A DNA stretch of 59,857 nucleotides, taken from NCBI GenBank assembly GCA_044892505.1, contig CM097882.1:364068144-364128000 (forward strand). Direction: 5' to 3'. The notes under the pieces were generated by a model. The model did not search any database, was not told the DNA's origin, and was given only the letters and a program-made list of their open reading frames with translations. A program made the position numbers and the translations under genes. This document shows positions 21,890 to 57,780 of the stretch, piece after piece. This stretch comes from Schmidtea nova. Its lineage: Eukaryota. Every line of letters starts with the position of its first letter. Within the stretch, counting starts at the first letter, position 1.

Positions 21890-21894
<5 letters not shown>

Positions 21895-25490: not shown

Positions 25491-25494
<4 letters not shown>
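21890..25494. mobile_element. Unclassified insertion of about 3.6 kb flanked by (TA)n
   Basis: Begins TGTTGGG directly after (TA)n and ends AACAACCCACCAA directly before (TA)n; no intact ORF; right end ambiguous. Confidence 0.35.
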
Positions 25495-25578: not shown

Positions 25579-25583
<5 letters not shown>

Positions 25584-26458
25584 GGTTATTAGTGTGAAGT
25601 CGGTAGTTTCTGACTCCGGTGTTCTCTTTCAATTACAAAAAAACAAAACCCAACACAATGACTTTCTTAATTTTTCAAATGATCACAACTCTGTTTATCA
25701 CAAAAAGTTACTCGGGCTCTGCACTCTTTGCGTGAGGGTAGAACACCCAATGGGATATCTCCCTCTCTGGTACGCAAAAGATTAAGTTCAAGTTCTACCT
25801 TTGATTTCCTTTGAGCGTCTCCTCCGAATATTTTCTAACGGTTTGAGATTCACTTTACGCCTAAAATTTATCTACGACCAACTGGCGATTTCTGTACTAT
25901 GCTCTCCGTTTTTATACCATCTTTGTGTTGCCATTCTGTCGGTGTAATTGGATATTATCAAATCCGCTCGGTTGAAATCGGATCTGATTAGCCCTGCTTG
26001 GATCTTTGCCGTTTATGTTTTTCCGGCTCTCCCCGGGGCATTCAATTTAATTCGATAGTTTAATGACCTCACTGATGCCCCGGGTTTCCCACATCGCTCG
26101 GATGTCCTACTAGCTCGGGTTTCCCACATCGCTCGGATGTCCTACTAGCTCGGGTTTCCCATTAACTCGGGTTTCCCATTAGCTCGGGTTTCCCATTAGC
26201 TTGGGCTTCCTATAGAATAATTAATTATTTTAATTACTTTGTATTTTCTAATTATTTCCTTCTGGGGGCCCCTTTTTATTTTTATATACCCATATTCGAA
26301 TTCGTCTCATCGTTTGGCATCCTCCCATACCAGTTTCCCCCTCTCAAACTTTATTTTAATTTAATTTTTAATTAATGTTTGAACATTAATTATTATTTTT
26401 CCAATTTTCTTTTGTATTTTTATTAAATTTATTTTCTGTGATTATAACAACCCCAACA
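25579..26458. mobile_element. Probable solo LTR (880 bp) inserted in (TA)n
   Basis: TGTTGGG...CCCAACA 7-bp inverted termini (TG...CA); TA repeats on both sides; internal minisatellite GGGTTTCCCA... at about 26082-26200. Confidence 0.6.
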
Positions 26459-28019
26459 TATACATATATATATATATTCTAACACAACACGCAACCCAGC
26501 TCTCCCGATACATTTTAAATGAGACTAGGCTGGGTTCAACAGTAATAAAAACATCAATAGTAACCACTCAAGGTTATGGAGTTATTTGTAGTGTAGTATT
26601 GCCAGTTTACCAGTATCCAAATGGTCTAAATTTAACGGTATTTTAGTAAAGTTTTGTATTAAATTTTAAACTTTTAGAAATAATAATAAGGTAAGAAAAT
26701 AAAAAGCATAAGATAAACTTCTTTTCTGTGATATATTATTATTTTTAATTTATTTATTTATTTATATTTGTTAAATTTTGAATCTTTTAAATTATCTGAT
26801 ATCGCGCACTCCATAATTTTTAGTATATCAGAAAAAATCACTGAAAGTAAAACCTTTTTTATATTTTTATTACTTATTTATATTGCCAAATTCAAATTAC
26901 ATTTTTTTAAGAAAATAGATAGCCTAGTTATGTTTACTGGAAAGAACATATTGTGGAATCATTTTATACGTACAAAAAAATGGATATTCAACTGTATGCA
27001 AAGGACGCAAAAAAGAAAAATGGCTCCGTTGGAAACACTGTTTTCAGCATTTTCGTTACAAATCGTTTTTATTCTCGATTTTCAATTTTTACATTGAAAT
27101 AAAAATGATTGACGACTCAGTTCTAGCTGTTTTTCGCTATTGTCGGCACGAGATTGCTTGCAATTTAAAAAGCTTTTCACATAATACGATCTCCATGATT
27201 AGTTTTTATTATTAAATCTTCATTTATCCTTTTAAATGTACTTCTTTATAAAGAACGAATCTCGGAATTTTTAACCAGTCAAAATGACTGCTGTGGTAGT
27301 CCTAGTCTAAACTGTATATAAAGACTAGGCATAAGTTGTATGCATTAATTTAAATTTAAATGAAATTTTACTGAAAGTCAATATTGACAAAAGCACTTTT
27401 TTATTAAATTCTTAACAGCTTTATAAATCATAAACAACTGCATAAACAAAAGATATGAAATATTAATCTATTTGAAATACAAATTCAAAAGGCTCAAAAA
27501 ATTTCTCTGCACTCATAAAAAACTACTGTACATTTTGCACAGTGAAACGATTATTAGAATAAATTAGATTTTTTATTGATATCAAAATGAAGAGAAAGAA
27601 AAATCCTTACACTACTTGAAAGTTTAAACTAAATTTCCTTTATTTTTTCAGACTATCAATCAATATTTTGTTTAAAAATCGTGTTAAATTTAAAACAAAA
27701 TAATGATCTATCATCTGGAAAGAAATGAAGATTTATACATTGAATATATATTTAATTACATTGATTTAAAGAATTTTTAAATAAAATTAACAAAAATAAA
27801 AAACTTCAATTATAATTTGTATACTTTTCATCAGTTTATTTATTCATAAATTCTGTGGAGATAATAAAAAGATTTCACAGTTTCTCGTCATTAGACCAGT
27901 TCACCCAATTATTGAGATTCCTAATATTTGGTTATATTATTAGCTACCACATACGGCATTCTTATTCAACTACTAGATTAGGGAATAATTTTTAAATTAA
28001 TTATAGAAAATATCTGATA

Positions 28020-30648: not shown

Positions 30649-32000
30649 CAGTCCCACAAAAAAAGTCGTGAACAGTTAAGTTTATTCATAATTTCTTCAC
30701 AAACTTCATAACAACCCGAATAAAGTGAAAGGCATTTACAATTTGAAACATCATAATTTACAAAATTTCCAGAGGGTTCCAATAATCAATTCAATATGAC
30801 ATTGGACCACTGCCTTGCCTGATACACTCCTGTAGGCGTTTCATCATTGACAGTGCCAGATTTTTAAAGAAAATGTTAGGTAACTGATGAAACCAAGTAT
30901 TGAGTATTGCTGCTTTTAAGTCAATTAGGTTATCAAATTTGTATTTTCCAATTTGGTATTTCAGCAGGGACCACGCATTTTCAATGGGGTTAAGGTCTGT
31001 TGACTGAGGGGGCCAATCCAGCACAGTCCATCGTTATTTAGGGATCCATTCCTTTACTATTTTGTTGCGGTGGCATGGTGCACCATCATCCTGTAGAACT
31101 CAATCTTTATTATTACTAAACGTCTTTCTAACGGAACTGCGTACTTCATTGTTCAGAACCTTTAAATACCACTGGTATTTGCATCTTTCGTCATTGTACA
31201 AGAACCGAACTTTTCCCGGCCTAGAAGCAGTGAAGCTTCCACATAACATAATAGAGGATGGATGTTTGAGTGTAGGGACTACAAACTTTAATTTATCATC
31301 CTTCTTTCGACACTCACGTTGGCATCTTGAATTATTTACCACATATATTCTTGTTTCATCAGTGAACAGCACTTTTTTCCAAAATTCTGAAGGCTCATTT
31401 ACATACTTCTTTGCAAACTTTAATCTCATTTGTCTATGGCTTTTTGTTAACAGTGGCTTCTTGAGCGGTAATGAGGATCTAAATTACATTCTAGATAAAT
31501 AATTCCTGATAGTTTGATTACTGATGTTTATATTCATGTGATACTCACAGGTAACGGCCGGATTCTTAGCAATTTCTAATGCTAAGTGTTGTTGAACTCT
31601 GTTTGAAAGTATCTCCTTTCGACCACAAGTTAAATATTTGTTAGACAAATCATTCGTTGTTTTGTACTGCTTTACCACTTTCGAAATTACTCCAACAGAA
31701 ATATTGAGATTGCTTGCAATTTTTCGATAACTTTCCCCAGTTTTCAATTTATTGATGATTAAAAATCGAATTCTTTTATCCAAGACACTGTTTTGAGCCA
31801 TATGTATTTTTAAAACATGCGTAAAAATAAATGGAGTTTAAACAAAATAATGATTTCATTGATGTGAAATAAATGAACCAACATTAAATCCATAATATTG
31901 GAATTATATTAACATTTTCTCCTTGAGTGCACTAACAACAGATATTTAGACTTTTACATAAAGAAAACAATAAGTGTTCACGACTTTTTTTGGGTGTCTG
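30649..32000 (-). mobile_element. Tc1-like transposon, degenerate
   Basis: Imperfect TIRs of about 26 bp, CAG...CAAAAAAAGTCGTGAACA; TA at the right end only. Confidence 0.88.
30791..31801 (-). pseudogene. Tc1 DD34E transposase pseudogene
   Basis: HTH (GESYRKIASNLNIS), VLFTDET, LQDDGAPCH and WPPQSTDLNPIENAW; frameshifts and an in-frame stop. Confidence 0.9.
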
Positions 32001-33033: not shown

Positions 33034-33166
33034 NNNNNNNNNNNNNNNNNNNNNNNNNNNNNNNNNNNNNNNNNNNNNNNNNNNNNNNNNNNNNNNNNNN
33101 NNNNNNNNNNNNNNNNNNNNNNNNNNNNNNNNNNNNNNNNNNNNNNNNNNNNNNNNNNNNNNNNNN
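33034..33166. other. Assembly gap (N run)
   Basis: Run of N. Confidence 1.
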
Positions 33167-33657: not shown

Positions 33658-34596
33658 AAAGATCAAAGGTGAAAAAAAGATAATTATGATACTTTTATTA
33701 TAATCAATAATTACTTTTCTCCGAAATTTCTCTTTATTTTTGATAAAGTGAGTTTTTTACTATGGCATATGAATGAGTACAAATTATTAAATTGGAATTA
33801 AAAGATTCACAACCTTTTCTGAAATTAGGACATTTCAGAACAAAGCAATATTTAAGTGCGGCCATTTGGCAAGATGCGACCAATTTCTTTTTATTGTGCG
33901 GCCATTACCATTGTGATTAAAATATTAAAAAAATATTTTGTTACATTTTGTTTTCAGAAAATATTTATAGTAACAGATACCCGGTGAGAATTTAAAAAAC
34001 AAATTAAGAATCAGTAATACCCAACTGGAGTATCATTTGCTGGGATTATGGGTGGGTTCTAAATAATTAAAATAAATAGTTAATTATTAATTAAACGACT
34101 ATTGATGAGTACGTATACTAGGGATTCCACGCCCATAACCATACATAACATGACTACTACACGCGTATGCCCTTGCCTATTCCCTACTAGTCAAGTTGGT
34201 ACTGCATACGGTGGTGGAAAAATGATGGGCAGGTGAGCTTTGTTGCCAAAACTACTCCCCATTTATCTTCCCTCGGGTCCTTGCTGCCGATAGAAGGTCT
34301 TACGCAATTACATTCTATGGATGTTCGTCTCCCAATGAATTTTACACTATTTATCCTCATGAGTTATCACACGCTTTCCCCAATTGCCCTTTCCTTAACT
34401 GATCTACAAGGTAATTAATCAGTCTCTACGTAGAAACGGTCGGTCTGAGAAAAATACTGATGAGATTTTCGATTTCTAGGATTTAATTGAGTTATTTATT
34501 TTATTTAGTGAAGTCATACGATGAGAGACAAAATTTACACCAAAATACTTTTATTAAAATAATAAAAACAGGTTGTTATTTTACATCGATGTTTTC

Positions 34597-35181
34597 CTAC
34601 GCAAACTCCAGACTAATCTCCTGAATCAACTCCGCTTCGGTTAAGGAGTTCAAGTGGTGGATTTGCTCGTCCAGGCGCTTCGCAAATTCTCGGCGACGAC
34701 GACGCTGTCGCGATCCCATTCGTTGTTTTCGAAGCTGTTTGGTGAGTACAGGTACTGACGCCATTGTTCTCGATGGATCACTGAGAAAAGTAGGCAAGTC
34801 GGCTGTTACCAAAGTGGGGGCCATGATGATACCCTCTTCCGTCCCGCAAGCGACATCTTGATGAGTACTTTGTGTCCAGCGCTGAGCCGTGATCGGCCGG
34901 ATTAGCGCTCGTAATTCGGAGTCGATATAACTTCTTGTTACTGCATTTAGGCAATTTCGTAGTTCTCTCTGGACGGCATCTAGTTCCAATTTAGTTGCGG
35001 CCAGTGCTTCCTGCATTCGCTCAAGTTTTTTCGATTGGTCCTTCATTTGTTCGGGCGAGAACCACTTCGCTCTCAATTCATCATTGGCGACCGTGAGTCG
35101 CTTGATCTGCCGCTGCTGGTCCCTCAACTTCCTCTCTTGGATTTGTCCCATAATTTTCTTAGAATTTTCTGAAGTCGGCAT
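34597..35181 (-). CDS. LTR-embedded 194-aa protein: coiled coil plus Arg-rich motif
   Basis: ATG with CAG 5 nt upstream; AATAAA at 34550-34555; RKQRMGSRQRRRRRE; its last 42 nt recur at 59816-59857. Confidence 0.65.
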   Translation of the reverse strand: MPTSENSKKIMGQIQERKLRDQQRQIKRLTVANDELRAKWFSPEQMKDQSKKLERMQEALAATKLELDAVQRELRNCLNAVTRSYIDSELRALIRPITAQRWTQSTHQDVACGTEEGIIMAPTLVTADLPTFLSDPSRTMASVPVLTKQLRKQRMGSRQRRRRREFAKRLDEQIHHLNSLTEAELIQEISLEFA

Positions 35182-35509
35182 GTTGTCTGAATATTATAAC
35201 GATAAATTCGCTGGAGGACCTATCAACAATGTTATTTTATTTAGTCGACTATTTACTATTATTAAACGAGATGCATACTAATGTTTTTAATTATTGAGTT
35301 CTTTGCAAAATTATTTAACTATCTGATTATTGAAGGCTCAAAAGATTTAGTGAACTAATTTGATATTAGAAAATGGATTTCCTAATGACTATAACAACTA
35401 CAACACTGGATATTAATAAAGCTACAATACAACACTATTAACAAAATGAGACACTTCAGATTTCTCTAAAACATTTATTAAATTCAAAAACAGGTGGCCC
35501 TCGATTCAA

Positions 35510-35977
35510 CTATTCATCTTCGGTCATTTTTCCTCGATACGAAAATATCGATCTGATTTGCAAATTTGTGTTGATATTGGACGAGGCCTGCTGAAAACGG
35601 ATCCTCTCAGCTTCCCGAAGGGGTCGTATTGCTGTATGGAACTTGAACCCCAATTCCTTGAATGTAGAGGCTGGAATGAACCCCCAATATATTACACATC
35701 TCGGGAATCCTCGTTTATCTAGCATCAGAACGAACCAGGCGGCGTGCCATGATTCGAATTCCTCGTCTGGAATGATTGGCCAACTAGCACATCCCCGGTA
35801 CCATACGTGATGCCGTGGATGGTCCCATACTGTAAATGGACATGCGGTTTCAAGTTCTCGGCGCCATGCCCACATTTTTTGATGGATTTGTTGTAAAATC
35901 TCAAAAGGAGCCGGCTTTAACGGGCTAATTCGAGCTCGTTCTCGTCGCTTTTTGATGGTGAATCTGTGCTTAGTCAT
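35510..35977 (-). CDS. 155-aa Trp-rich protein of unknown function (probably within the LTR)
   Basis: ATG with TAG 4 nt upstream; AATAAA at 35474-35479; shares the 3' motif ACCTGTTTTT with the neighbouring ORF. Confidence 0.6.
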   Translation of the reverse strand: MTKHRFTIKKRRERARISPLKPAPFEILQQIHQKMWAWRRELETACPFTVWDHPRHHVWYRGCASWPIIPDEEFESWHAAWFVLMLDKRGFPRCVIYWGFIPASTFKELGFKFHTAIRPLREAERIRFQQASSNINTNLQIRSIFSYRGKMTEDE

Positions 35978-37513
35978 GATACTAGAACAATACTGAATTT
36001 TATAATAGTTAACAATTTAAATCAATTATTAAGTATAGTAGATGTTATCTCTCATCGTGATGCCTTTACTATTTGCCTTCCCCTTAGACCTTAGCTGAAA
36101 CCCAAAAAACTGTTGTTCACTACGGTATACATTACTCTCGTGTCTGCTTAGATCTATCTATTTATGATCGATAATATAGTCGGAAATTGGTGATTTGTCT
36201 GCGTGGGTATTGAAACACTGATACCTCAAAACGGAAACTCTCTCACGTCATGTATCTCCTAGCTTATTCGAAAAACGCTCTTTTGTATCAATTGCGGTCG
36301 ACCTAATTTTTAGAAGGTTTATTAGATGTTTATTTAGCAACTGTGCTGTGGTGAGGGTGAAAAATTGGGCCTCCTCACAGTCGAAAAATTCTTTCCTATC
36401 CTGCATCGTTAGATTTTATCTGAAAAATCGCCTCCTCGATAGCTAAGATGATTGAAATTAATTCCCCGGATTTGTTGGGTGTCCCATGTGCAAATCTCGA
36501 CCACTACCGATAGAATCATATTTGGTTATTTATTACTTTACCGTGTGTGGAGCCCTCGAGCACCACGCCACGGACTGACACCTTGGGAACCTAGAGCTCC
36601 CAACGGCGCAAAATTAATATATCAATATTTTTTACAATTAATCATAACAAGATTTAAATAATCAAAAATTTAATGATAACAAAAACATGCATAGTAAAAT
36701 CAATAAATCAAATTTTACCAAGTAATTCCACACAATTGATCTGATTAAGTTCGGTAGTAATACAATAGTCTGAATTAGTTTGGGGTCAAAATCGCAATCT
36801 AACAATGTCTGAATTTTTTGTCTCAACAAAAGTCTAAGTTGTACAAAGTCTAAATTTTAGTCTAAACTCTAGTCAAAAGTCTGATTTTATGAAAAATCTG
36901 ATCAGTATTTATACTGATCAGTCGTGTCTAGACCGACCAATCAAGTTCGGCCAGTTTCATGGTGGTTTTTAATTATTGTTTTTGATTCTAATTAATTTTT
37001 ATTTTTTAGATTGTATTCTTCCTTGGAGGTCCGGGTTTCCAAAAACAATTATTCAATAACAAGTACTTTTATTTGGTTTTAATTATTATTATTTGTATTT
37101 TATTTTGTTTTTAGATGTCTCCTGGGCCCGTTAATATCTAGAAATTCATTTATTTTTATTTATAGCTTGTACTTAGTTTATCTATATTTTAACTATATTA
37201 CTCCTTTCTTTTAACAAATAAATATTCCCCTTTTTACCTTATTTTTCTCTTTTTTGTTTTAATTAATCTACTTTTATTTCACTTTTCCCTCTATTTGGCT
37301 GGCCCAACATCACTCGGGGACCCCTAAAATTGCGTCCCGCAATTAATTATACATTTACACCTATATCATCATACATAAAAATTACGCAGATAAATGTCAA
37401 TTTACATATACACAAAGAATCACATAAGGTGATAGATTTTATACGTAAGCACAAAGTCATATTATTGTTAAATGTAAGTGGATCATATATACAGTGAATG
37501 TAATTTATCAGTT

Positions 37514-38086
37514 TTACACAAGCTCTTTGATTTCATGATTGGTATTGGATTGGATTGGGGTTCTTTCGCTGATTGTTCGTAGTTCGTAGAGGCTTTGGAT
37601 TCGGTTGAGATGTTTTCTCATTCGTTTTTGGGTTCTGATATCTGGTATTGTTGTTCGATTCAAGATGACTTGTTTTTGTTTTAGGATCTTTACTCGGTAG
37701 GATGTTATGAGGATTGTGATCGCGATAATGGTCACGCTGAGTGCAAGGATTATTATAATTGCGATGATCCATTTTTCTTGATATTCTATCTCTGCTTGGG
37801 CTAAGCTTTTTATGGGTTCTCGACCTTCTTTTAGGGTTTTTCTGATTGTTTTCAATTTGATTCGATGTTCATATAGGACCTGTTGAAATTTTTCGTCGTT
37901 TGGGTTGTCTAATGTTATCTGTTGAAGTTGGGTGATTTCTTGTGTTGCTTCGCTGATTAGTTTATCTAGCTCTTGATAGGTTTTCTCGGGTAGGGCTCGT
38001 AGCTCCTTCTCTGTGAGTTGAAGATCTTCTCTTTGTAGGGTGATTGTTATTAGGTATAAGAATATCGGTATTCTGAGCTTTTTCAT
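37514..38086 (-). CDS. 190-aa predicted type I membrane protein
   Basis: Signal-like N-terminus MKKLRIPIFLYLITITL; heptad-rich ectodomain; TM WIIAIIIILALSVTIIAITILITSY; basic cytoplasmic tail. Confidence 0.75.
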   Translation of the reverse strand: MKKLRIPIFLYLITITLQREDLQLTEKELRALPEKTYQELDKLISEATQEITQLQQITLDNPNDEKFQQVLYEHRIKLKTIRKTLKEGREPIKSLAQAEIEYQEKWIIAIIIILALSVTIIAITILITSYRVKILKQKQVILNRTTIPDIRTQKRMRKHLNRIQSLYELRTISERTPIQSNTNHEIKELV

Positions 38087-38168
38087 ACTGTTTTCTTTAT
38101 AGATAGGTCAATACAATTTGACACTACATTTCATATAATTATTTACAAAAATATATTTTCCGCTTTAT

Positions 38169-39230
38169 TTACACAATCGTCTCATTTGGTTCGTAGAAAC
38201 CTTCGTCCTGAGGCTCTACTTGGTTCGTGGGGAGTGGTATCCAAACAACCCTGCTCCTCCACATTTCGACTTCATCTCGATACATGTGAGATATCTGGAT
38301 CTCCTCGTCCAGCAAATATTCTAGGTAATTTGCTTGTTCTGTTAATGTTTCTATTTGCTTCTCTAATTCGATTACTTTTGTCTTTTGTTCGACTTCTTTC
38401 TTCATTTTTGTTACGGCTGCCGTTATACTTGCTTCTTTGGGTATTACTGATACTGTTACTCGTTTCTGTTTCAATTCTTCGTTTTCTTTCATCAAATTCG
38501 TTAAATTTTCCTCATAACTTTGTTTCTCTTCCTTTAATCTTTCTCTGGTTCTTTTTAGCTCTATTTTCTTCTGGGTAATCACTCCTTGATAACCATTTAT
38601 ATCTCTCTTCATCTCTTCTTCTTTCTGATTCCATATTCCGGTGAGCATAATTTTCAGTTGTTCTTGATTAGCTAGTTCTTCTCCCATTCTTTGAACTTGA
38701 TAGGTTAGTCCTTTAATTTTCTTTGCTTGTTCGCGGATAAATTGCTGTCTTTTTGTATTCCATCTTTTATTCAACACTTCTTGGTGTATTTTCTGTTCTA
38801 ACTCGTCTTTTAATTCGTCGATCTCTTTATATAATTTCCAGTCATCACTATAAGCTGTCCTTTCTATTATTTCTCTAGCTTTTTCGTAAGATTCTTTTGC
38901 TTCTTTCTTCCAGTATCTTGCTTGTTCTGTAATCGAATACATCTTGTGTTCAGCTTCCATCTGCTGTCTGTCTCTTTCCTCTCGTCGCTCTTTCATCATT
39001 CTCTGGTAATATTCCTTTTGTTGTTGTAGCATTTTGTATACTTCTTCTATTTTTTCTCGACTTCTTTGACTTGATCTTTCCGCTTCTTTTAATAATTCGG
39101 CTTGTCTCTCTACCTCCTCCTGCTTTCTATAATATGCATTGACCCATATTTCAATCTGTTCTAGATGATCGCTAATCGCTTCTGCTTGATGCATCGTAAT
39201 TTCCTGTAAGCATACTTCGATATTTCCCAT
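38169..39230 (-). CDS. 353-aa long coiled-coil protein
   Basis: E/K/Q/R-rich heptads throughout; the stop codon overlaps AATAAA (38164-38169). Confidence 0.8.
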   Translation of the reverse strand: MGNIEVCLQEITMHQAEAISDHLEQIEIWVNAYYRKQEEVERQAELLKEAERSSQRSREKIEEVYKMLQQQKEYYQRMMKERREERDRQQMEAEHKMYSITEQARYWKKEAKESYEKAREIIERTAYSDDWKLYKEIDELKDELEQKIHQEVLNKRWNTKRQQFIREQAKKIKGLTYQVQRMGEELANQEQLKIMLTGIWNQKEEEMKRDINGYQGVITQKKIELKRTRERLKEEKQSYEENLTNLMKENEELKQKRVTVSVIPKEASITAAVTKMKKEVEQKTKVIELEKQIETLTEQANYLEYLLDEEIQISHMYRDEVEMWRSRVVWIPLPTNQVEPQDEGFYEPNETIV

Positions 39231-39359
39231 TGCTATAATTACAGAAAATTTTTTTTTTTTTTTTTTTTTTTTAATCGGTTTATATATCAGTTATTTTTGT
39301 TTATATAATAATTTTTGGGTATTTAACTGTACATATTATTTACATGATCACTTCTCTTG

Positions 39360-40742
39360 TTACGTCAACCATCCTTTTCTATCCGCTTTCTCGTTCCTTT
39401 CCATTTCTATATATAAGGTGTCTGCATATAATCGTTCCCATAGGTTTTCTTTCGTTATAAACATCGGTTCTCCCGCTGCTAATCCACATTCTGTGGTTGG
39501 TTTCTCGCTCGTACTCGCATGTTTCTCTGTCTCAAAGAATTTTTCTACTGGTTTTGTTACACTTCTGATTCTTACAATGACTCCTACTTTCAAGGGCCAT
39601 TCTACTAGGTCGTCGTATTCTCCTTTACATAGCGAGAAAAATATTTACACATGTGTTCCCCGTCCTCTTCCGTCTCCATTTGGGTATAGCTTCAATCTCA
39701 CTTTAGCTCCGTTTCTCCATAAATAAAATGGTGGGCTTATTACTGCTGTTTTCGTCATGTTTCGGGCCTCTGTTAATTTGTCTCTAAAATCTGTCACTTT
39801 CCACACATATGGTGCTATTGGTAGCTTTTCCTCGGTATCCTGTGTGAGTTTGTTGTACTGGATTTTCATTCCTTTAGCCAATTCTTCAATAGCTTTTATC
39901 TTTTTCTCCATTTTTTCTCGTGTTAGTTCGAATTGCTCTCTGGTTTCCAACAGTAGGCTTACCATTATCTTGTGTGACTCTATTTCTCTTTCTAATTTTT
40001 TGATCGTTTGTTCGGTTTCTTTTGTTGCTTCGTTTGTCATTTCCGCATGCTTTAGCAATGCTTCCTCCAGATGTTGTTTCATGGTTTTTTGCGTTCTTTT
40101 CTCCATACATCCCTGTTTATTATAAGGGCATTCCCTTGGTTTCTCCGTGCACACTTTCCAATGTTCTTGTAATTTTACTTCTACCGTTATCTCGCATTCG
40201 TTTGAACATATTCCTACATATTGTCTACATACTTTCTCCTCTTTTACATTCAGGTGTTCTTCTTCGATCTTTCTCCTCGTTTCTCGAGTTCCACAATATT
40301 CGCATAGACTTTCCTCTTCTTTACATTCATCTTTGTGCTGCTCTTTATTCTTTATAGTTATTTTTTGTTGGCATTTGTTACATTCAGTTCTCTTCTCTTC
40401 GCAGTTCTCCAGATGGTTCTCGAGATCGCGTATTTGTCCTTGCCATATACATGGTTGATTAATACATTCGGTTTTCGTGTTCATGATTTCTCTCTGAGTT
40501 GCTCTATCTGGTCTGGTTTCTTCGAATTTTATTTGTCCTTCTTTGCATTCTGGACATTCTGGTGGTCTCTTCATACTTAACTCGTGTATGCATTTGGTAC
40601 ATACTCTGCATCCGCATAGGGTTTGTCTTGGTTTCAATATTATGTTTTTACAATTTACACAAGTGAGTCTCTGACTCCATTTCCTGTTCTCGGCTCTCAA
40701 AATTTCGATTCTCCGCTCTTCGGCTTTTCCTTCTGTATTCAT
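39360..40742 (-). CDS. TRAF-family protein (RING, TRAF zinc fingers, coiled coil, MATH), 460 codons with one in-frame TAA at 39645-39647
   Basis: CVNC...CGCRVC RING; CNKC/CEYC/CPYNKQGC fingers; the MATH domain YVWKVTDF...SPPFY...LYPNGDGRGRGTHV*IFFSLCKGEYDDLVEWP continues in frame into ORF 39360-39593. Confidence 0.9.
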
Positions 40743-40833
40743 TCTACAAAGATATATACACTTGATTTGTTATCTATTTTTTGATTTTTCTTGTTTTTTG
40801 TTTTACATATTTACAATTTTTCGCTTTATTTAT

Positions 40834-41190
40834 CTACGGCTCGTTTGTTGAATCTGGTTCTGGGTCATTTTCTGATCTGTTTATTGCCCAATTTGTCCAT
40901 CCATCCTCTGCTTCTTCTGTCTCTCCCATTGTTAAACGGTCTATCTCTATTGCTTGTCTCTGATTTATGTCGCTCATCACTTGATTCTCTCTGGTAAGTT
41001 GCGTTATCAATCTCTGTTGCTCCTCGATTCTGTGGAGTTGTTCAAAACTATTATTATAACTTTCGGATAACAAATTCTGTTTCTCAATTAACTGATTTTG
41101 TAGTGAGTTGATTGTTCGTATTAACATGTCACACTGGGCTTTCCATCGCATAGCCATAGTAGTTTCTGCTATTTCTTCCTGTTCGTTCAT
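40834..41190 (-). CDS. 118-aa coiled-coil protein of unknown function
   Basis: ATG with TAG 3 nt upstream; Q/E/L heptads; AATAAA at 40825-40830. Confidence 0.65.
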   Translation of the reverse strand: MNEQEEIAETTMAMRWKAQCDMLIRTINSLQNQLIEKQNLLSESYNNSFEQLHRIEEQQRLITQLTRENQVMSDINQRQAIEIDRLTMGETEEAEDGWTNWAINRSENDPEPDSTNEP

Positions 41191-41315
41191 TTTCTAAATT
41201 ATATACATTAATCGTTTTCTCGATTTCTCTTTTTATTTTTTTATAATATCGATACCCATACTATTACGGTAATGCATTGTTATTTACACTATTATTTACA
41301 GTCATATCCCGCCTC

Positions 41316-43262
41316 CTATATCACCATCACTGTCTTTCCTTCGTACCGCTCTTCATCTTCTATTTGTCTCCAAAATTCTTTACCTTTCGTCCTCCTTTGA
41401 AATTCTTTCTGTACTTCTTCCGGTAATTCTATTCTGTAGTTCATAATTTTTATATCTGGCCAATGTGTTATTGGTTTCTTGTTGAGTACATCGTATATCC
41501 ATATTATTAATAACACTGTTATTACTGGAATAGTTGCTGCTAGTATTCCTAGGCCAATTAGTTCTCTAACTTGTTTGTTTACGTCCATCTTCGTAATTTC
41601 ACTCTGGTTAATCATTGGTCCGTATTGTCCCTTTAGTTTATTTAGTAGTTGTTCTCGTTCTTGTTGTTTTCTTTTAACTTCTTTAATTACTTCTTCCGGC
41701 GTCCATCTTGCGTAAGGGTCTATTACTACTTGTTCTGCGTCCATTTGTTTCGTTGTCTGACTTAATTCTTTAAATTCGAGTTTTCTCACTTTCCCTTTGG
41801 ACGTTCAGTTTACCGGTGTGTAGTACGTTTCGCATCTTTCCTGCTGATTTCCCAATATGTCCGTCTTTTCTACCGCACATATCTCGTATTCTCTATTAAA
41901 TTTCAGATTTTTGATACTCATTTCTTCTTTTCCTTTTACGGTTTCGCAGTATCGTGGCTGTCTTTCTTTTTGTTCCTGAACTACTGCCCAACATATTTCT
42001 AACGTTTTATTGTCTATTCTCCATAGTATAAGAGTTGCTGTAGTATTCTTTTCGGTTTTTATTTGTATTTCTTGGTTTTTCCGTTGTCCATTAGGTTTAA
42101 AGGTAGTGGTATACCTCGCTTTTCCTTTGTTCCGTTGTCTTCTACTTTTTCGCGTTGTCTTTCCAACTCTTGTTCTGGTGGGTGTTTTATATAATTTGCA
42201 TTCCAATTCATTTACTGTTATTTTGTCGCTTTTCCTAATCAGGCATATTTCGTACGTTTGATTGCTTTCTAATCCTTCTATCTGTATTGTGGTTGTTCCT
42301 CTGTTTGTTCGACATTGCGGCGGTGTATTCTGGTTTGTTTTCCTTTCCTGCTTCTTCCAGCATACGCCTTTGACGTCCGGTTCTATTCCGGTTAACTCTA
42401 ACATTATAGTTGTTCTCCGTTTGGTGCGTATATTTCTTCTTCTTCTTCTTATGAACTTTATTGCTTCCCCAGGTTGAAATGTTTTACAAATTGTCGTTCC
42501 TTTCTTGTGTCTTTCTTTTTCTAGTAAACATAGTTCATACGTCCTGTCTGCTTTTACTTTTGATATCTTGGTTACTTTATTTGTTTTCCTTTTCCGACTC
42601 GTCTTTATTTCGCTTATGCCAATTTCTTCGTTGTTTCTGGCCCAACACTTTGGGTTGGTATTTTGGGTGTCGTTCATCTCTGTTACTGCCATTGTGTCAA
42701 TGTCTATCCCTTCTTCTAACCGTTTTAACATTGTTAATATGAGTGCTAGACATAGTAATTCTGTTTGATAGGTCACTCTTTCGGTTTCATTTGTGGTTAC
42801 TCTTACTTCGGGCTTGTCTATGGTAATTCGTATAGTTGGCGTTGTTCGTCTGTCTATTGTCTGGGGTTTTTTGTTTTTTGTTCCTTGGGTCTCCGTTTTT
42901 CCACACTTTCCTACGACGTAGTCTCCTTTGGCTGACTGCTGTACTGTTATGGTTACTTTGGGTGTTAGGTAATTTGCACATGCAATTGTGTTGTGTGATC
43001 TTGGATTCTTTTGTTTTCTGATGGTGCATATTTTGTACCAAGTATCTAGCTCTAAGTCATCGATCTCTATGATTTCTTGTTCGTATTCTGAAATCCTGCA
43101 ATCCATTGGACTATTTTGTCCCGAGATTTTGTCCTTTTTCGACCAACATACTCGTTCGATTCCTTTTGCGTTTCTAATTTGTATTGTCGCTCTTTCTTCA
43201 CATATCATTCCTTGAGTTGGACTAATTAAGGTCATGACTATCGTTAGTAATAATAGTTCTGG
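41316..43262 (-). CDS. Predicted surface protein: signal peptide, 3-4 Cys-containing FN3-like repeats, coiled coil and TM (in-frame TGA at 41805-41807)
   Basis: PELLLLTIVMTLISPTQG signal-like segment; repeats of CW...C...I-x-I-x-x-L-x-x-(N/D)-x-x-YEIC...C-x-x-Y-x-TP; RTKR dibasic site; the frame continues into ORF 41316-41789 with TM LIGLGILAATIPVITVLLIIWIY. Confidence 0.7.
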
Positions 43263-46200
43263 TTAAAAGAATGGGTTTATTGTTTGTTTGTAGCCTGTTC
43301 TTTTTGCTTCGTTTTTATTTTTATAGTTGTTGTGTCTTTGTTTCCCAAATTCGTTTTTCTTATCATTTTTCTCTGTGTTCCTTCCTTTCTCTTCACTGTC
43401 CTCTTTATCTGATAACTCATGATCCTCTGGATTTTCTCGAGTACTATCGTCGTCGCTTCCTGTATTGTCGCCTCCCCTTTGGTCGTTGAAAATGTCGTCC
43501 TCGACATTAATTGCTTCTATCATTTTTTCATACGTTATGGTTGTGAGTATACTTGCTTCATATTCTTGTGTTTCTGCCTGCTTAGGTATTTCCTTATCGG
43601 TTAATTTACAATCTAGAATCTCTTTCTTGGCTTTTATCCAATTATTAAGGTACGTTTTCATTAGTTCTTTCCATTTGTCCGTACGTTCTGTTTCCTTTGG
43701 GTTGTTTGTGAATCGTAAATCTTTTCTTCTCATGAAGATGTCTATTATCTTTGGCCATTTGTTTATTATTAATGCACACTTTATATACAAATTTTTGCCT
43801 TGTTCCATGAACTCGTTGATCCGGAATGCTGGTTCATTGGTGTTTGGGTTCGTCCAATTGAGTATTGCTTCGGTTAGTTCAACGTTATGCATCATGGAAT
43901 GTACGCTAGCTTTTTTAACTGTCCTTGTAAGATATTCTATTTCCTCCTGATTTGTGATTGTTTTTATAAAATTTATCACCTCCCAATTGTGCGTTAACAA
44001 CGCTACGTCTAGTATTGAGCTGTCTTTGTTAGTTCTCCCCATGAGTCCTGCACCTGCTTCGTACAGTTCCTGTAACACTCGGGTTTTTGTGTTCGCTCTT
44101 GCTGCGAATATCATGAGGGTATCCCCCTTTTTATCTTTCATGTTCATGTCACTTCCGCAATCTTGCATCAACCGTGCAATTTCGACTACCCTCCTATCTT
44201 TTCCTGCTCGTAAGGCTCTATGTATTGGCAATACCCCATTCTTTGTTAATAAGAAAGTCACTGGCATTTCTCTTTTTATGATCATCATATCGTTTTCATT
44301 GTATGTTCCTTCCGCGTATGCGTGTATCTTTTCCACAATTGCTCCGAGTATCTCCAGTGTATGTTTAGAATTTTCGAATTCTGGTAATAGTTCTTTTGCT
44401 TTGTCCTGTATCGCATCCAACCTTTCTTGATATGGTACCTCTGCGCTGAAAAGTGGTGTAAATTTCCTTTTGCTTTCTCTTTCCTTTCGACATAGGAATT
44501 GTTTGCATTTCTCGGGGTGGTTTAGTATGTCTACTAGTTTGTCATACTCTTCCTCCACCGTTTTGTATTTATCTTGAAAATTGGATATATCTTTGTAAGT
44601 TATCGTCTTGGTTAGCGATTTTGCACACCATTCCCTAATTTTTCTGAATAATGCTTCTTTTTCACTTTCGAATTTACACTCCTCTTTGTTTTTGGAAATT
44701 ATGATATTTCTTCTGTCTAATAACGTTAACAGTGCTTTCTGGTCACAAACGAATTTTAATAGGAATTGTAATAACGCGTTTTGTCCTTCACTGTATACCT
44801 CGTTTATATTTAACACCCATGTATCATTTTCAGATCTTTTCCATTTTATTAGCTTGCGTATTGTTTTGCAGTTACCGATTTTTATTGCTTCCTTTATTAT
44901 ATCACCCTTGATCAGTTCGTCTATTTCCCAAGTGGCCTTCTCGATTATTTGTTTGAGCATTATCTGATTTGAGCTCCATATTACGTGATTCAAGACTGTT
45001 TTGTTTTCTCTATCGCGTTCCGTCCAGTTGAAATCGGCATTTATCAAAAGATCTATTATTGCTTTATCCGATTTGTAGATGGCTGCTACCATTAATGGTG
45101 TTTCTTGTTCGCTATTCCCAAAACCAAGGTGTTGGTTTGTTTCCTTTGCGATTTTTAGAAATTCTTTTACTCTCTCTACTTCTCCCCATTTTATGGCGTT
45201 ATGTAATGCTGGTTGTCCTCCTATGTCTTCTAGTGAAAGTATTTCTGGAATTTTTTCCATTAGTTCTGAAATGACTGGTTTTGTTGGTAGTCCCCTTGCG
45301 TAATCACTAATTATCGACTGAATATCCCTTAATATATCGTCTCTGACATGCCATCTTCCCATTATTTCTCTGGCTTTTAGTACGATTTCCTTGTTTCTTT
45401 TTTTCTGTTGCTTGTTTTCTGCTTCGATAATTTCATTGGTTGCTCTGAGCATATTCATTCTGGCTGTCTGGGATCTGGTTATTATTCGTTCTTCTGGCGC
45501 TGTGGTTATTGTTTTAGGTACTTTCTTACATCTGCATGTATTAACGTATATTGGTCGTATCAATGGTCGATTAACAAGTTTTACCTTCACATTGTTTTCC
45601 TTTTTGTATATAACTTCGTAAGGGCCTTTTCCTGGTCTTTGTAGTTTTTTAACGGTTCCTGGTATTATTTCTGGGGTTTCTATCATTACCCAATCTCCTG
45701 GTTTAAGATCATTTGTTTTAACGTTTTTCTTTTGATCGTGTAGGTCCTTGTAACTTTCTTGATAAAACTTTATGTTTAGTTCTGCTGTCTTCCATATCTC
45801 TTGCATTCGTTCTTTGAATTTGGTGACGTAATCATCTTCCTCCATATATTGAGACAAAGGTGGTTGATATTCAAGATCTATTGGCATATTGCATTCCCTT
45901 CCATACATTAATTGAAATGGACTCAATTTTGTTGCTGCGTGTATCGACATTCGGTATGCCATTAGACATAGCTTTATGTACTCATCCCAATCTGTTTGGT
46001 GTTTGCTTACATAATTGGATAACATTCGAATCAATGTGCCGTTAAATCTTTCCGTTTGTCCATTAGTTTGCGGATGATATGGTGACGTTCGTAATTTGGC
46101 TATTCTGAAGTAGTTTGTTACCTCGTCTAATATTTCGCTCATAAAATTTGTCCCTTGATCTGTCAGTATTTGTTTCGGGGTTCCATATCGGCAACATATT

Positions 46201-49200
46201 TCCTCTACTAAACTTCTTGCTACGATCTTTGCTTTTTGATCCGGCATCGCAAATGCCTCAGGGAATTTAGTCAAATAATCCGTTATTACCAATATATATT
46301 GATTCCCGTTTAAACTTTCTGGCAATGGTCCTATTACATCCATCGCAATGGTAGTCATTGGTTCCGCTGGTATTGGCATGGGTTTTAAGGGATTTTTCCA
46401 TTTCTTCCCACTATCCTTTCTTGTGGCACAAGTTAAACAGTTCTTTATCCATTCCTTTACGTCCTCGTTCATTGTTGGCCAATAATATTTTTGTCTCATG
46501 CGATCTAATGTTTTCTTATCGGACATATGTCCTCCCAACTTTCCGTCGTGGTATTGAGTTATTATCTCTTTTCGTCTATTGCCTGGCAGACACATTAATC
46601 GTTTTTCTCCATCTTGTATTAACAACCATCCTTTTTCTATTGTGTATCGATGTTGGTATTTCCTCATGTGTTCTTTTAACTCCGCATTGTCTTTGAATAC
46701 ATCCATATTTCGTGAGCTTAGGAATTCTATGATGGGTCTTAGTTCTTTATCCTCTTGCTGATCTTTCTTTAACTCACTGAAATCCAAATCCTCTGCTATC
46801 ACTATGCATATTCTTTGCACTTCTGGGTCTGTTAGTTCTGGAAACGTTAATCTTGACATGCAATCTGCGTTGGCATTCGCTTTTCCTGATTTGAATTTTA
46901 TATCTGGTGAATATTCTTGTAATTGCATCGCCCATCTCATTAACCTGCTGGATGTTTCCTTATGTTGTCCTAGCCATACAAGTGGTTGATGGTCTGTGGT
47001 TATGCATATAATGTGTCCCCATAATAGATATTTGAAGTGTTTTATTGCTAATATTATTGCCAATGCTTCTCTTTCCGTTACTGAATAATTCTTCTCGTGT
47101 TTCTTGAATGTTCTGCTATAATATCCGATTACTCGCTCTTTACCTTCGTCATCATATTGTCCTAATACTGCTCCTGCTGCATATCCACTTGCGTCGGTTG
47201 CGAGTAAAAATGGCTTTTTGAAATCCGGGTGAACCAATATTGGTGCAGTTATTAGCTTATCTCTCAATGTTTCAAAGGCTGTTTGTTGTTCGCTTCCCCA
47301 TATGAACGATACGTCTTTCTTTACTAGCTCCTGGATTGGTTTTGCAATTCCTGCGTAATCCTTTATGAACTTTCTATAGTAACCGCATAATCCGAGAAAT
47401 TCTTGGATCTGCGTTATAGTCTTTGGTATTGGACATTCTTTTACTTTATCAATGTTTCTGGGATCCGGTTCCTTTCCTTTTGCGGACACAATATGTCCTA
47501 AAAATGTCACTTTCTCTTTTGCCCAATCGCATTTCGATGGTTTGAGCTTGAGTTTCCATTGTCTCAATCTCACAAATACATCTCTGATATCTTGGATGTG
47601 TTGTTCAAATGTGCTTGAGTAGATTAGTAGGTCATCAATGTAAACCATGCATTGTTTTATGCCGTGGGTAACGAAATTCATACATCTTTGAAATGATGCT
47701 GGCGCATTGGTTAGTCCGAATGGCATTTTCCTAAACTGGTACAAGTCTCTTCCGATAGTGAAAGCAGTTTTCTCTTTGTCTTCCTCCTTCATTTTAATTT
47801 GCCAGTATCCGCTTTTCAAATCCAATGATGTAAAATATGCCGCTCCTTGTAATGTCAATAACATCTCGTTGATGTCCGGTAATGGGTATGTATCCCTTTT
47901 TGTAACTGCATTTAATCTCCGAAAATCAATACAAAATCGTTGTGTTCCGTCTTTCTTTTTCACCATTACGACTGGGAATTGCCATGGTGAGCAGCTGGGT
48001 TCAATTACTTCTGCGTCTAGCATTTTCTGTACCTCTGCTTCTGCTACTGATTTTTGCGCTTCAGCTAACTTGTATGGTCTTAACGCAATCGGCGTTTCGT
48101 CTGTTAGTGGAATCGTATGTAGTGTGACGTCGCATGTCCCTAGATCTAAATCGGATGCTGCGAATATGTCTTTATATTCTATCAGTAATCTTTCTAGCTG
48201 TTTCTTTTGATCCTCATTCAATAGTTGGCTATCAATGTTCCAAGTGGGTTCTTCCTCTTTTACTCCTTCTTTTATTGGTATTTCGATATCTATCATTGGA
48301 GTTAGTTTACCCAATCTTTCATTTTCATAAATTATTTTATCCTCTTCATCGAAATTTACTACATTTATTGGGATTTCTCCGTTGTCATTCGCACTCACTA
48401 ATCCCCTTGCCATTGGCAACGACTTTCTCTTTTCAAATCTTTTACTGGGTTCAAAGATCATGTCACCTTCTATTGTGGGATCTATTTTTACGAAGCATAT
48501 TTTCTCTCTCCGTGCTGGTACGATTATTTGTTTCGAACTTGTTACTTTTGCTTCTATTGCGCATATCTGTCCTGTCCTATCCTTTAATCTCATTGTTCCG
48601 AGATCAATAACTATTTCTTTAAATAATGCTGGCATCAGATCCGTGCCTATAATGCATGGTACGCTTAGTGCTGGTATTACTGCTACGAACGTTTCGATTT
48701 CTGTGTTTTGATGTTTTATATTCACCCACCATCTTCCTGCAACTTCTACTACTTCTTTACTGCATGCTATTACATGAACGTTGGTTCTCTCAATATCCCG
48801 TCTTTGTTCTTGTGGTATCCATTTTATATCTATTGCTGAGATATTTGCTCCTGTATCAATCATCGCTTCAATTTCCCTTCCGTTAATTTCGATTGTTGTA
48901 GTTAATACTGGACCGGTGTTTGATGACATTACTGCAATTGTATGTGAGTCTCCTTGCGGATCTACGCTTCTGCACCGTCTTGTTCTATAGTCTTCTGGTA
49001 TCATAGGATATATGTTTGTCATCGGCATCATTTGCATTGTATTTTGTCTCATCCCTGGTGTTGGTTCTTGGTACATGGTTGGTGGGGGTGCGTAACACTT
49101 CCACATTTCGGCTGGATTCTTTTCGACGTACTGTGGTACTTGATTTTTAAATACTTGACCTCCTTCGTTATCATCATCATCGTCGTCACTGGAATCGTCT

Positions 49201-52200
49201 TGGGTTCTGTACCCTTTCATTCTTTCCCATAGTCCTTTTCTCTCTTTCTTTAGTTGTTGTCTTGCTTGCTCGTTATTCATTATCTTTTTAAATTTTCGTC
49301 CCACTTCTTCATCGGTTCCTTTCATTTTTGCCAGTATTTTTAGGAGTCTTTTTATTCGGTGAATATCTTTTGAATGACCGTGTAATACCATTGTTTTAGC
49401 CAAAAATGGTAAGAATCCTACCACCAATTTCCAATTTACTTTCTTTTCTCGTTTATAGATGTCAAAACAGGCTAACATTTGCGTTATTATTACCCGTATT
49501 ATTTGTATAATTAGTATAACACCAAGTATACCTGCCATCATTTGTCCAAATATTAAAAATCTTCCCCACATCGCTTTCATCATGTTTTCCGTTGCCTTCT
49601 TAAAGTGGGCTGGTGACAATAATAATTCGTAATTTGGTCCACCTTGGTAATTTGTTCCTCCTGTTATTGTTACAATACTGGATAACACCGCTTCCCTTCT
49701 TGCTGGAAATAGTATGTTTTGTCTTGCTGCTTCTAAATCCTTTGCGCTATAGAATCCCATATTACTTACATCCACGTCTTTAAATTTTCGTCCTTTTGAT
49801 AGTTGCATCAATTCAAATTCCCTTGGTGCTGGTACCTCTGTTCTTGACGGAAACATAACCCAATTCCCGTCTGGTTTTTGGTATAGTGGTCCATATGCGT
49901 TGCTGCAATTGAAAGGGTTTGGTTCGAAGTTTACTGGATTTATGATTCTTGTCACTGGTTGCACATATCTTACTTTCCCTTTATATTCGATTTCTAGTTC
50001 GTTAGTACACTGACCTGGTTGTAGTTTTGTCATTGTCGCTACTTTCGCGTTTGTCTTTTTACATATGTATACGTACATGACCTCTCCGACTACCCTTCCA
50101 AAATGACCTTCTCTTAATGGTAATAGTGGCATTGCACTATCCGGGTTTGTGATTGCTACTGCTAGTTTTGTCTTTAATATTTCCCTATTTAATATACAAT
50201 CGTTATTTATTAAATCGTAATACACTTTTTGTAGTGACGCTTGTCCTCTATGGAATAGAAAATCCATTTTATTGTTCATGTAAAGGTGTAATTTAACATC
50301 GTTCGTGTGCACTTTGCGTTTCGCACTAGGTACTTCTTGTTTTGATACAAAAATGCCGGGGTAGTTGGTTTCCAACATGGCTACTCCGCATTTCAAGGCT
50401 GTTTTTCCTTTTACAAACCTCATTCCGATATCTGCATCTGAGGTAATTAGTACCGTTGGTGTATTTCTCATTTTAATTTGTTTTTCTTGTGTTCGGGTTT
50501 CAATCTTTTTCTCTCCCCGTACTGTGTCTTGAAGTATTTTTCCTCTTGCTGCCTCGTCTTCTTCTTCCTCTTGGAAGGTTTTCCCTTGTATCTCATCGAA
50601 TTCTGCTTCCTTTAGTAGTTGTAGTTGACATTCCTTTCCTCGTATCTGGTATGTTAGGGTTGACATACCCGTCTGACAAGTGTTTGACTCGATTTTGCAC
50701 ATTGGTAGGGTTTTCATTTCTCCCGTTGTTGGATCGAAGAATGTCTCGTACGTTTTTAATTCCACTGTATAAGTATCTATTACTACTAGGTTGGTTGCTG
50801 CTACTCCGAATATTGGATATGTTGCTCCTTGGCAATACCCTTCTCCTCCAGTAATAGCTCCTGCTACATAATATGTTTGTTGCAATATCACTCCCGTTTT
50901 TCCTCTTATCTTTACTCTATCTCTAGTCTCTACTTCTCCATGTTTGAATAATTTTTCACAGTCTTCTCCTTGCAGCATTACCGACTCTCTTTCCGTTCCT
51001 GGCATCACGATTGCTGAATAATGGCGGTGCCCACAATAAAAAGCAAATCTGGTTTTATAAACTTTGCATTCCCTGACCATTGTTCTTATCAGTTCCGCTT
51101 CCTGATATACGTGGTATAATTGCCTCTTTTTTAACGTTTTTAGTTCCGTTGGGGTTGCGTTTTTACATTGTTCTATCCCTCGTAATGAGTATTTTTCACC
51201 TAATGCCATTTGATCGCAATCGAATACTTCGAATGCTGTTGCGCCGTCAGTACTAATCATCCATATTAGCATCATCATAATGATGGAACTCAGGTTTAGT
51301 GTCGATTTTCCGTTTCCTGTTCCCGACTTTTCCTTTTCCAATTCTCCCAATATCTCTTCGAATTTCTTTTTCATATTTTCGGCTTGGTTTTTCTTTTGGT
51401 TTGTTTTTGTGAATATTTCCCATCCTCCTTTACTGATGATGTACGGTTCTATTTCCTTCTCTATAATTTTGGCTGTATTCTTTATATGTCTTTCAAGTGC
51501 TGTGGGTTTCAGTCGACCTCTACTCAGTGTCAGCAGATTGTAAATGGTGTATGCCATAGCTATTAAATATTTGTTATCCGTCTCTGCTCCTTCCGTTAAC
51601 TTCTTTATCAACATCGTGGTTCCTTGCCAATCTAGGTGGTTTGACCTTGTCTTTTCTTTTATTAGTTCTGGTAGGATTGGTGCGATGGCGCTATGCAGTG
51701 ATTTCGCCCTTTCGCTTATTTCGTTTATTCTCCACCATTTCTTTAATTCCGGATCGATTATTGCCAGTATTTCCATTAACATCTTTGATATCCATTCTTC
51801 GCCTTGGTATGTTTGTGTTGTTTCTTTTTCTTTCGTTTCGGCTATTTTATTTAGTTTCTTTAGACACAAATCCCATTGATTCCGTCTTTTTTCCTCTCTT
51901 GATTTTATAACTACATTTGCTGGATCCATCTTGGGTCTACCCCTAGGTCGTTTATCCATTGTCGTGCCCGTTTCTACTAATCTTGTTTCTCGTCCAGTTT
52001 TTTCTGTGACGTCTCTTGGTTCATTGGCTCTTTCTTCTAACCATCTTTCCATTTCTTGTGTGAATTGTACATTTTCTACATTTGCCCTCCTTGCTTCCTC
52101 TTCTGCTATTTCATTTACTTCTTCTATGATTATTTCTTGTTCGACTTCATCTTCGGTGTTGGTTACCGGTATTGCTGTTGGTAATTCTTGAATTCTTTCG

Positions 52201-53246: not shown

Positions 53247-53264
53247 TCTGATAACGTGGATGGT

Positions 53265-57525: not shown

Positions 57526-57571
57526 TATATATCCGGATATCCCTATTGGCTCCTTTGGCCTCTAATCAATA

Positions 57572-57737: not shown

Positions 57738-57780
57738 CAATAACGCCTAGCTAGGTCATTCAATATGGCTCTTTGGCCTC

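Follow-up and report, generated by a model that had tools for sequence, protein, structure and literature searches.

A TRAF gene of Schmidtea nova that lies between long terminal repeats (LTRs) and is interrupted by a stop codon within its MATH domain raises the question of whether such genes are residents of a mobile element, and of what the stop means for the encoded protein. The analysis covered a window of 59,857 nucleotides, the whole stretch of contig CM097882.1 under study. The planarian TRAF family is expanded, as a first-pass annotation of this DNA had stated: 99 MATH/TRAF transcripts with 121 domains are described in PMC6109357 and 282 MATH/TRAF contigs in PMC7586133, and these transcripts (99-282) are treated as host genes in the available text of both sources. 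Within that text, the string 'transpos' is absent from PMC7586133, and PMC6109357 discusses transposons and MATH/TRAF apart.

A TRAF reading frame within a giant LTR element

The TRAF gene occupies 39360-40742 on the minus strand, from an ATG at 40742 to a terminal TAA at 39360-39362, and forms a single 460-codon frame without an intron, interrupted by one TAA only, at codon 366 (39645-39647). Domain searches were run with an X placed at this internal stop. The complete layout of RING, zinc finger, coiled coil and MATH reported by the first-pass annotation was confirmed, as was the intronless structure, and the coordinates are exact except for the coiled coil, a helical, heptad-like stretch placed by eye at approximately residues 236-305. 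MATH_2 matches residues 312-447 across the stop (Pfam, E 9e-20), and the best solved matches of the MATH region are TRAF5, TRAF3 and TRAF2 (E 7e-22 to 2e-20). A zf-TRAF match at residues 170-224 (Pfam, E 8e-5) lies under the curated cut-off, and the RING (residues 28-66) has no Pfam match at E<=0.01; residues 22-151 resemble the RING/zinc-finger regions of solved TRAF6, TRAF5 and TRAF2 (phmmer, E 5e-11 to 4e-9). The fourth RING ligand is Cys and not His, a feature found in 15 of 18 other members of the same clade versus 7 of 95 rows outside it. Trimerisation, receptor-peptide binding and E3 activity are predicted for the intact element TRAF from its family.

The frame sits between two LTR copies on the minus strand that are identical at 601 of 601 comparable bases, in agreement with the proposal that the gene is borne by a retroelement. 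The 3' LTR (34038-37309, minus, 3272 nt) has an observed end at 34038 and a start at 37309 inferred from TGTTGGG...CCCAGCA termini, whereas the 5' LTR is partial (59257-59857, minus, corresponding to 34038-34638) and runs off the window. The two copies are spaced 25,219 nt apart, and with an inferred LTR of 3.27 kb the element would total about 28.5 kb. A candidate primer-binding site, which we take to be tRNA-Pro-like, starts with TGG 6 nt inside the LTR end (59233-59250, minus). The 3' LTR itself holds ORFs at 35977-35510 (155 aa) and 35181-34597 (194 aa) on the minus strand, each behind a YAG, with a higher GC content, codon usage different from that of the element and no Pfam match. DNA flanking the element is low in GC, which, like the type of element, would fit a triclad host.

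Closest to the 5' LTR is an ORF of 153 aa with an IAP-type C-terminal RING (58441-58902, minus; Pfam zf-C3HC4_3, E 6e-12; XIAP/cIAP RING, E 2e-11), beside which a BIR domain was looked for and not found. Tandem arrays with units of 97, 41 and 31/61 nt (57346-57965) separate this ORF from gag, and the 31-nt unit contains a small inverted repeat. The gag ORF (53265-56783, minus) encodes Retrotrans_gag, three CCHC knuckles and putative ubiquitin-like repeats, has its first ATG only at codon 175, and ends in a TAA in frame with the next ORF. The gag frame is open for 174 codons ahead of that ATG (56262-56843) with element-like codon usage, and position 56843 offers a strong acceptor-like site that shares the gag frame but is cut off from it by a TAA at 56784. 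The putative ubiquitin-like domain matches Ubiquitin_4 at E 0.07, with ubiquitin-like chains among its top weak fold matches (E 0.6 or worse). Directly after the gag stop a strand is predicted in a ubiquitin-like model with a pLDDT of 46, and the domain may, as a weak suggestion of this model, be split by the stop.

A polyprotein of 3333 codons follows (43263-53264, minus), with its own YAG and ATG at 53246 and again a TAA in frame with the next ORF. It opens with a putative Bcl-2-like region (51351-51851) and a fusion glycoprotein of the Monjiviricetes type, continues with protease, RT, RNase H and integrase, and then has ankyrin repeats (Ank_2, E 1e-11). The glycoprotein (Pfam Monjiviricetes_fusion, E 3e-69) is in frame, between gag and pol and upstream of the protease. 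The Bcl-2-like region has no match at the sequence level; all 35 of the Foldseek rows listed for it are Bcl-2-family (prob 0.75-0.98, E 0.09-0.4), from a model with a pLDDT of 47. A Gypsy-order pol (protease, RT, RNase H, integrase) and a CCHC-knuckle gag are both present. Downstream lie a signal-like segment with FN3-like repeats (41805-43262, minus; Fn3_ELFN, a weak match at E 0.6), ending in a TGA, and in frame behind it an ORF with a transmembrane segment and tail (41316-41804, minus), which is followed by two copies of TGTAAATA. TRAF is the second of four accessory ORFs behind the transmembrane ORF; the others, all on the minus strand, are a helical ORF of 118 aa with no credible family (40834-41190), a coiled-coil-like ORF of 353 aa (38169-39230), whose own stop overlaps TGTAAATA, and an ORF of 190 aa with hydrophobic segments (37514-38086), neither of the last two having a Pfam match.

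With stops counted as X, the main frame comprises 5,155 positions. It is interrupted, with no frameshift over 15.5 kb, by stops at 53265, 43263, 41805 and perhaps 56784 (minus), and the relatives P0014-P0017 are uninterrupted at these points, reading from gag or env through pol to the signal, ectodomain and transmembrane segment. P0014-P0017 are Burro-type env-in-pol polyproteins with a C-terminal module of this kind; P0017 carries a Flavobacteriaceae MAG label and is most likely eukaryotic contamination. No sequence named Burro1-4 was among the protein-set matches. As the TAA at 53265 after gag, either a lesion or a variant, splits the gag-pol frame, there is no single continuous gag-env-pol ORF1, and the element was filed as Burro-like and not as Burro1-4. 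Both 53265 and 43263 are followed within 6-9 codons by a YAG and an ATG, and these two stops may be true gene ends. Three or four stops alongside undiverged LTRs and an unshifted frame are a poor fit to neutral post-insertion decay (P 0.008-0.15 by assumption), a misfit that weakens if 53265 and 43263 are gene ends, if the lesions were inherited from a trans-mobilised parent, or if repeats were collapsed.

Other mobile sequences occur elsewhere in the window. The segments 21891-25493 and 25580-26460 have TGTTGGG...CCCACCA/CCCCAACA termini, are set in (AT)n tracts, and are likely to be solo LTRs of related families targeting AT microsatellites; their similarity to the LTR of the TRAF element is marginal (score 31 versus a maximum of 30 in 100 shuffles). 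An intact-looking hAT transposase ORF with a zf-BED and a dimerisation domain lies at 8602-10464 (minus, 610 aa from the first Met). Frameshifted remains of mobile elements were recognised by eye at 310-1432, 18551-18940 and 31100-31837, presumably Penelope-like RT/GIY-YIG, Merlin/IS1595-like and Tc1/mariner-like, respectively. Runs of N mark assembly gaps at 11808-11957 and 33034-33166, the second 0.9 kb from the 3' LTR end.

Signals around the accessory genes

A YAG stands 1-5 nt ahead of the first ATG in nine of eleven element ORFs, TRAF included, the exceptions being gag and the transmembrane ORF, compared with 23 of 177 internal in-frame ATGs (p 2e-6, a post hoc value since this pattern, like the 3' motif described below, was spotted by eye and tested later) and 5 of 61 non-coding ATGs. 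The count omits three of the 14 sense frames, which overlap other ORFs; with these included, the pattern is present in 9 of the 13 that have an ATG. At the TRAF gene, a T-rich tract and YAG that form a candidate splice acceptor (40744-40760, minus) end 1 nt before the ATG. Behind the gene, TGTAAATA at 39337-39344 (minus) lies 18 nt past the first base of the full-length TRAF stop. All seven copies of this motif are on the sense strand and inside 38147-41300; the antisense strand has none. Its degenerate form TGTAHATA is found 18-24 nt past the stop in all five of five downstream accessory ORFs, and behind five of the eight terminal stops tested versus 0.11 expected, likewise a post hoc comparison. 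We take the TGTAAATA/TGTAHATA motif to be a Pumilio element or a CFIm site.

The spacers of the cassette measure 82-129 nt. One of them holds a run of 24 A (39249-39272, sense on the minus strand) 88 nt past the TRAF end, which is the sole run of 8 or more A within the element and may be a poly(A) relic or a product of slippage; the remaining spacers are likewise A-rich between TGTAAATA and the next acceptor. The simplest reading of this arrangement is that it would yield subgenomic mRNAs, cis- or trans-spliced, each short at its 3' end. TRAF would be made as a separate protein from such an RNA, spliced in cis or trans to the acceptor 1 nt before its ATG, and the statistics of the sequence suggest that its mRNA would have a short 3' end marked by TGTAAATA, as for the cassette neighbours. 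The same grammar of acceptor and 3' motif suggests an expression route for the many small genes of a 25-kb element. A spliced leader ending in AUG was rejected as the source of the FN3 ORF start, since on inspection its AUG would lie in another frame. A GT..AG segment of 57 nt (41757-41813, minus) preserves the frame and includes the TGA that separates the FN3-like ORF from the transmembrane ORF. If it were either spliced out or retained, membrane and secreted forms could result, which is only suggestive given that segments of this type span 6.6% of random codons.

Codon usage indicates how long TRAF has been part of this unit. The TRAF codon index is 0.68 before the internal stop and 0.70 after it, the same as that of gag (0.675), which points to long residence in the element and not to a fresh capture; the neighbouring hAT transposase scores 0.56 and the LTR ORFs 0.41-0.50. 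The phylogenetic tree of TRAFs that the first-pass annotation had called for, based on 113 of 150 homolog matches chosen by length (330-620 aa), groups the element TRAF with its five nearest relatives, P0038, P0049, P0064, P0167 and P0182 (UFBoot 98). P0038 is the best full-length relative, with an intact MATH domain and 36% identity. The other four are without MATH, end at differing points and have deletions in the RING or zinc fingers, giving them the look of decayed copies. P0167 starts with a piece of a Burro-like polyprotein N-terminus (E 3e-11), and P0046, a complete TRAF of another clade, starts with an integrase C-terminus (E 1e-6 to the element and 9e-12 to P0014). TRAFs of two or more lineages are thus physically joined to elements of this kind, with the caveat that either protein may be a rearranged copy. 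Close sibling copies were found neither in the 90% protein set and the 50% set (HMMER) nor in bacterial/archaeal genome contigs, the best matches reaching 36% over the full length and 40-44% over part; other TRAF matches in the 90% set are distant (23-27%).

It is highly improbable that TRAF is a recent one-off capture of a processed mRNA, a passenger pseudogene of this single copy. The absence of introns and the 24-A run 88 nt downstream would suit such an origin, but the codons are fully adapted to the element, the layout of acceptor and 3' motif is that of the cassette neighbours, related TRAFs are fused to Burro-like sequence, and MATH cargo is described for Burro elements in PMC6431247. 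A one-off capture was also the outcome that the first-pass annotation had named as fatal to its proposal, and it is countered by the adapted codons and by the fused TRAFs P0046 and P0167, which show that capture was not a single event. The proposal itself, that the planarian TRAF expansion consists in part of copies carried by retroelements, is upheld as far as carriage by this element and the two further fused TRAFs extend.

The in-frame stop within the MATH domain

The internal TAA lies at approximately position 51 of 136 in the MATH profile, in a column occupied by one residue in 110 of the 113 aligned homologs (two gaps, one other), and the earlier statement that it falls on a conserved Ser position thus holds. 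Because approximately 60% of the MATH profile is lost, the stop does not merely trim a tail: the 365-aa product retains only about 50 of the 136 profile positions and does not count as a MATH protein, whereas the read-through gene does. The remainder of the domain is open, again as reported, for 94 codons, a length reached in 0.065% of 20000 shuffles. The pre-stop and post-stop halves each match MATH alone (E 1e-9 and 2e-7), and the post-stop half retains the GEYDD..WP, KPT.E..LAAG.P.F and DTLYI blocks. Its mean identity to intact clade members is 0.30, and the same value is obtained for the intact nearest relative P0038. At 0.75, the ratio of post-stop to pre-stop identity is the smallest among 17, the rest spanning 0.80-1.06, which leaves room for some relaxation after the stop.

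The reading preferred here, with a probability of roughly 0.6, is that TRAF is a long-resident accessory gene in which a nonsense lesion arose recently, within this copy or within its lineage. It is favoured by a post-stop half that is open, codon-adapted, MATH-like and as conserved as that of intact P0038, by the cassette 3' motif at +18 behind the full-length end, by the intactness of P0038 itself, by the decayed look of the four MATH-less clade members, and by the further in-frame stops of this copy at points where P0014-P0017 read on; it sits less easily with the low identity ratio, with the several stops in an element whose LTRs do not differ, and with the fact that the stop itself makes a copy of TGTAAATA (39642-39649), like the real stop of the ORF at 39230-38169. 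Only 7 of 3118 possible nonsense changes would create this motif, in a test that is post hoc.

That the stop is bypassed was judged very unlikely. Programmed readthrough or RNA recoding, applying to the other in-frame stops alike, would give a low, regulated supply of full-length TRAF, and would account for several in-frame stops without a frameshift in a young copy, for the strong conservation beyond the stop, and for the low-confidence strand predicted just past the gag stop. However, the context is UAA-A (+4 = A), and UAA is the most faithful stop codon according to PMC5829715. No 3' structure was detected after the TRAF stop (z -0.45) or after four other in-frame stops (z -0.20 to +0.67), and an Rfam search of the whole element gave zero matches. 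The context and the lack of structure tell against readthrough as the first-pass annotation had offered it. Skipping of the stop by an intron was rejected: the sole in-frame candidate, of 84 nt, would delete the MATH core, and in-frame candidate introns like it are found at 20% of random codons. A variant genetic code was likewise rejected, as TAA also terminates ordinary ORFs and turns up only a few times among some 5,600 codons.

It is improbable that the stop is an artefact of sequencing or assembly, or that repeat copies were collapsed into a mosaic, in which case the identical LTRs might be collapsed as well. Long-read errors are mostly indels, and there is neither an N nor a frameshift in the 15.5-kb frame or the TRAF frame. 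On the other side, the scaffold has N gaps at the two positions given above, the 24-A run is near TRAF, and Burro elements are known to be hard to assemble (PMC11410931).

The stop might alternatively be a useful truncation that has been fixed in an active sub-family, the MATH-less TRAF entering host TRAF trimers by way of its coiled coil and blocking or rerouting them, or acting as a receptor-independent ligase. We consider this unlikely. In its favour, the stop generates TGTAAATA just as a true cassette stop does, and TGTA is once more found at +18; the identical LTRs indicate a young copy; four of the five nearest relatives are also without MATH; and the identity ratio is the lowest of the set. 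However, the MATH-less relatives break elsewhere and carry RING or zinc-finger deletions, the 3' motif is present behind the full-length end too, and the post-stop half has the openness, adapted codons and P0038-like conservation noted above.

Known inhibitors and truncations of TRAFs bear on the same point. TRIP, which consists of a RING plus a coiled coil, inhibits TRAF2 (PMC2196258), and duck TRAF3-S inhibits through hetero-oligomers (PMC5863512); these coiled-coil inhibitors are precedents that make decoy action of a truncated TRAF possible. Duck TRAF3-S, however, retains TRAF-C, and in the classical dominant negative, TRAF2[241-501], it is the N-terminus that is missing while the TRAF domain is kept (PMC2196258). 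Since TRAF2[241-501] is the opposite fragment and TRAF3 is described as losing activity when truncated C-terminally (PMC6158389), a null is the default expectation. The speculative suggestion that a MATH-truncated form could act as a dominant negative thus gains precedents in TRIP and duck TRAF3-S and loses the best-known one, in which the truncation is the opposite.

A nonsense lesion at codon 366, in this copy or its immediate parent lineage, would leave a 365-aa protein with RING, zinc fingers, coiled coil and a MATH stub that could not fold or bind receptors. TRAF-C is an eight-stranded sandwich that binds receptors (PMC3697994), and the product would not be recruited in the normal way. 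It is most likely null, with intact copies elsewhere expected to complement it. The stop is probably ordinary damage, and would be relevant only if fixed in the family. Going by its family, the intact gene, a long-standing accessory of this env-bearing giant LTR element of Burro-like type, would encode a trimeric adaptor resembling TRAF2/3/5 that also serves as a RING ubiquitin ligase, and TRAF, the IAP-type RING and the Bcl-2-like domain might together bias host death and innate-immune signalling towards survival of the carrier cell.

A broader reading combines these elements. The Burro-like lineage would be a complex-retrovirus-like or operon-like unit with gag, pol and six or more accessory genes, each with its own acceptor and a shared UGUAAAUA 3' signal; complete TRAFs would have been captured repeatedly, in at least two lineages, such that elements encode a substantial share of the TRAF expansion in planarians; and in one sub-family, a stop doubling as a 3' signal would have fixed a MATH-less RING/coiled-coil decoy. 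Taken as a whole, this combination is rather unlikely.

Comparison with Burro elements and animal TRAFs

MATH_TRAF_C cargo in planarian Burro elements is already published (PMC6431247), and TRAF carriage by an element is therefore not new. In the literature searched, with most subscription papers outside its scope, no paper was found that ties the TRAF expansion to Burro or that describes a complete Burro TRAF or a cassette of acceptors and 3' motifs. The full-length, stand-alone TRAF in a 3' cassette, together with the split main frame, is new relative to that literature, and the operon-like cassette around TRAF is the less familiar part. With a young Burro-like element that carries a complete, codon-adapted TRAF, and with two further fused TRAFs, whether planarian TRAF transcripts lie between LTRs is now a question testable in assemblies already at hand. 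If many of them do, results on planarian TRAFs from RNAi and expression studies need re-reading, and Burro cargo would span three death-signalling arms (TRAF, IAP RING and Bcl-2-like).

The closest described systems are Burro1-4/GYPSM1 of Schmidtea mediterranea, which according to the text available of PMC6431247 are Gypsy-like, about 25-30 kb in length and bounded by long LTRs. The element resembles them in size and long LTRs, in a gag with three CCHC knuckles, in a fusion-glycoprotein env in frame ahead of protease-RT-RNase H-integrase, and in its ankyrin repeats, tandem repeats, IAP-related RING and TRAF/MATH cargo; their ubiquitin-like and BCL2-like motifs may have counterparts here in the weak matches given above. 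It differs in that their MATH_TRAF_C lies inside a continuous ORF1 of 4,873 aa, whereas here a separate ORF reading from RING to MATH lies downstream of pol; in the splitting of gag, pol and the FN3/transmembrane module by in-frame stops; and in the BIR, which was not found in the element. The Burro-like element of Dugesia (Girardia) tigrina in the same source has MATH_TRAF_C in a separate accessory ORF, as here, and its main frame of 5,140 aa is close to the 5,155 positions counted here. However, its accessory ORF lies upstream and its gag has two knuckles, as opposed to downstream and three; the available text is silent on whether that ORF encodes a full TRAF.

Compared with animal TRAF2/3/5 (PDB 4gjh, 1kzz, 1ca4) and planarian TRAF-like proteins, the element TRAF shares the order of RING, zinc fingers, coiled coil and MATH, but has an all-Cys RING, A-rich codons, a composition rich in K/E/R/T, altered residues in the region of the receptor-binding loop, a stop within MATH and only 36% identity to its best full-length relative. 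A functional parallel is offered by B-IAP of Burro1 (Lee et al. Dev Cell 2026, as cited in the available part of PMC13465017), a host-derived anti-apoptotic cargo that is reported to protect stem cells. Like B-IAP, TRAF is a captured death-signalling gene, and the element also has an IAP-type RING ORF; unlike these sequence-derived assignments, B-IAP has a BIR plus a RING, and its function has been demonstrated.
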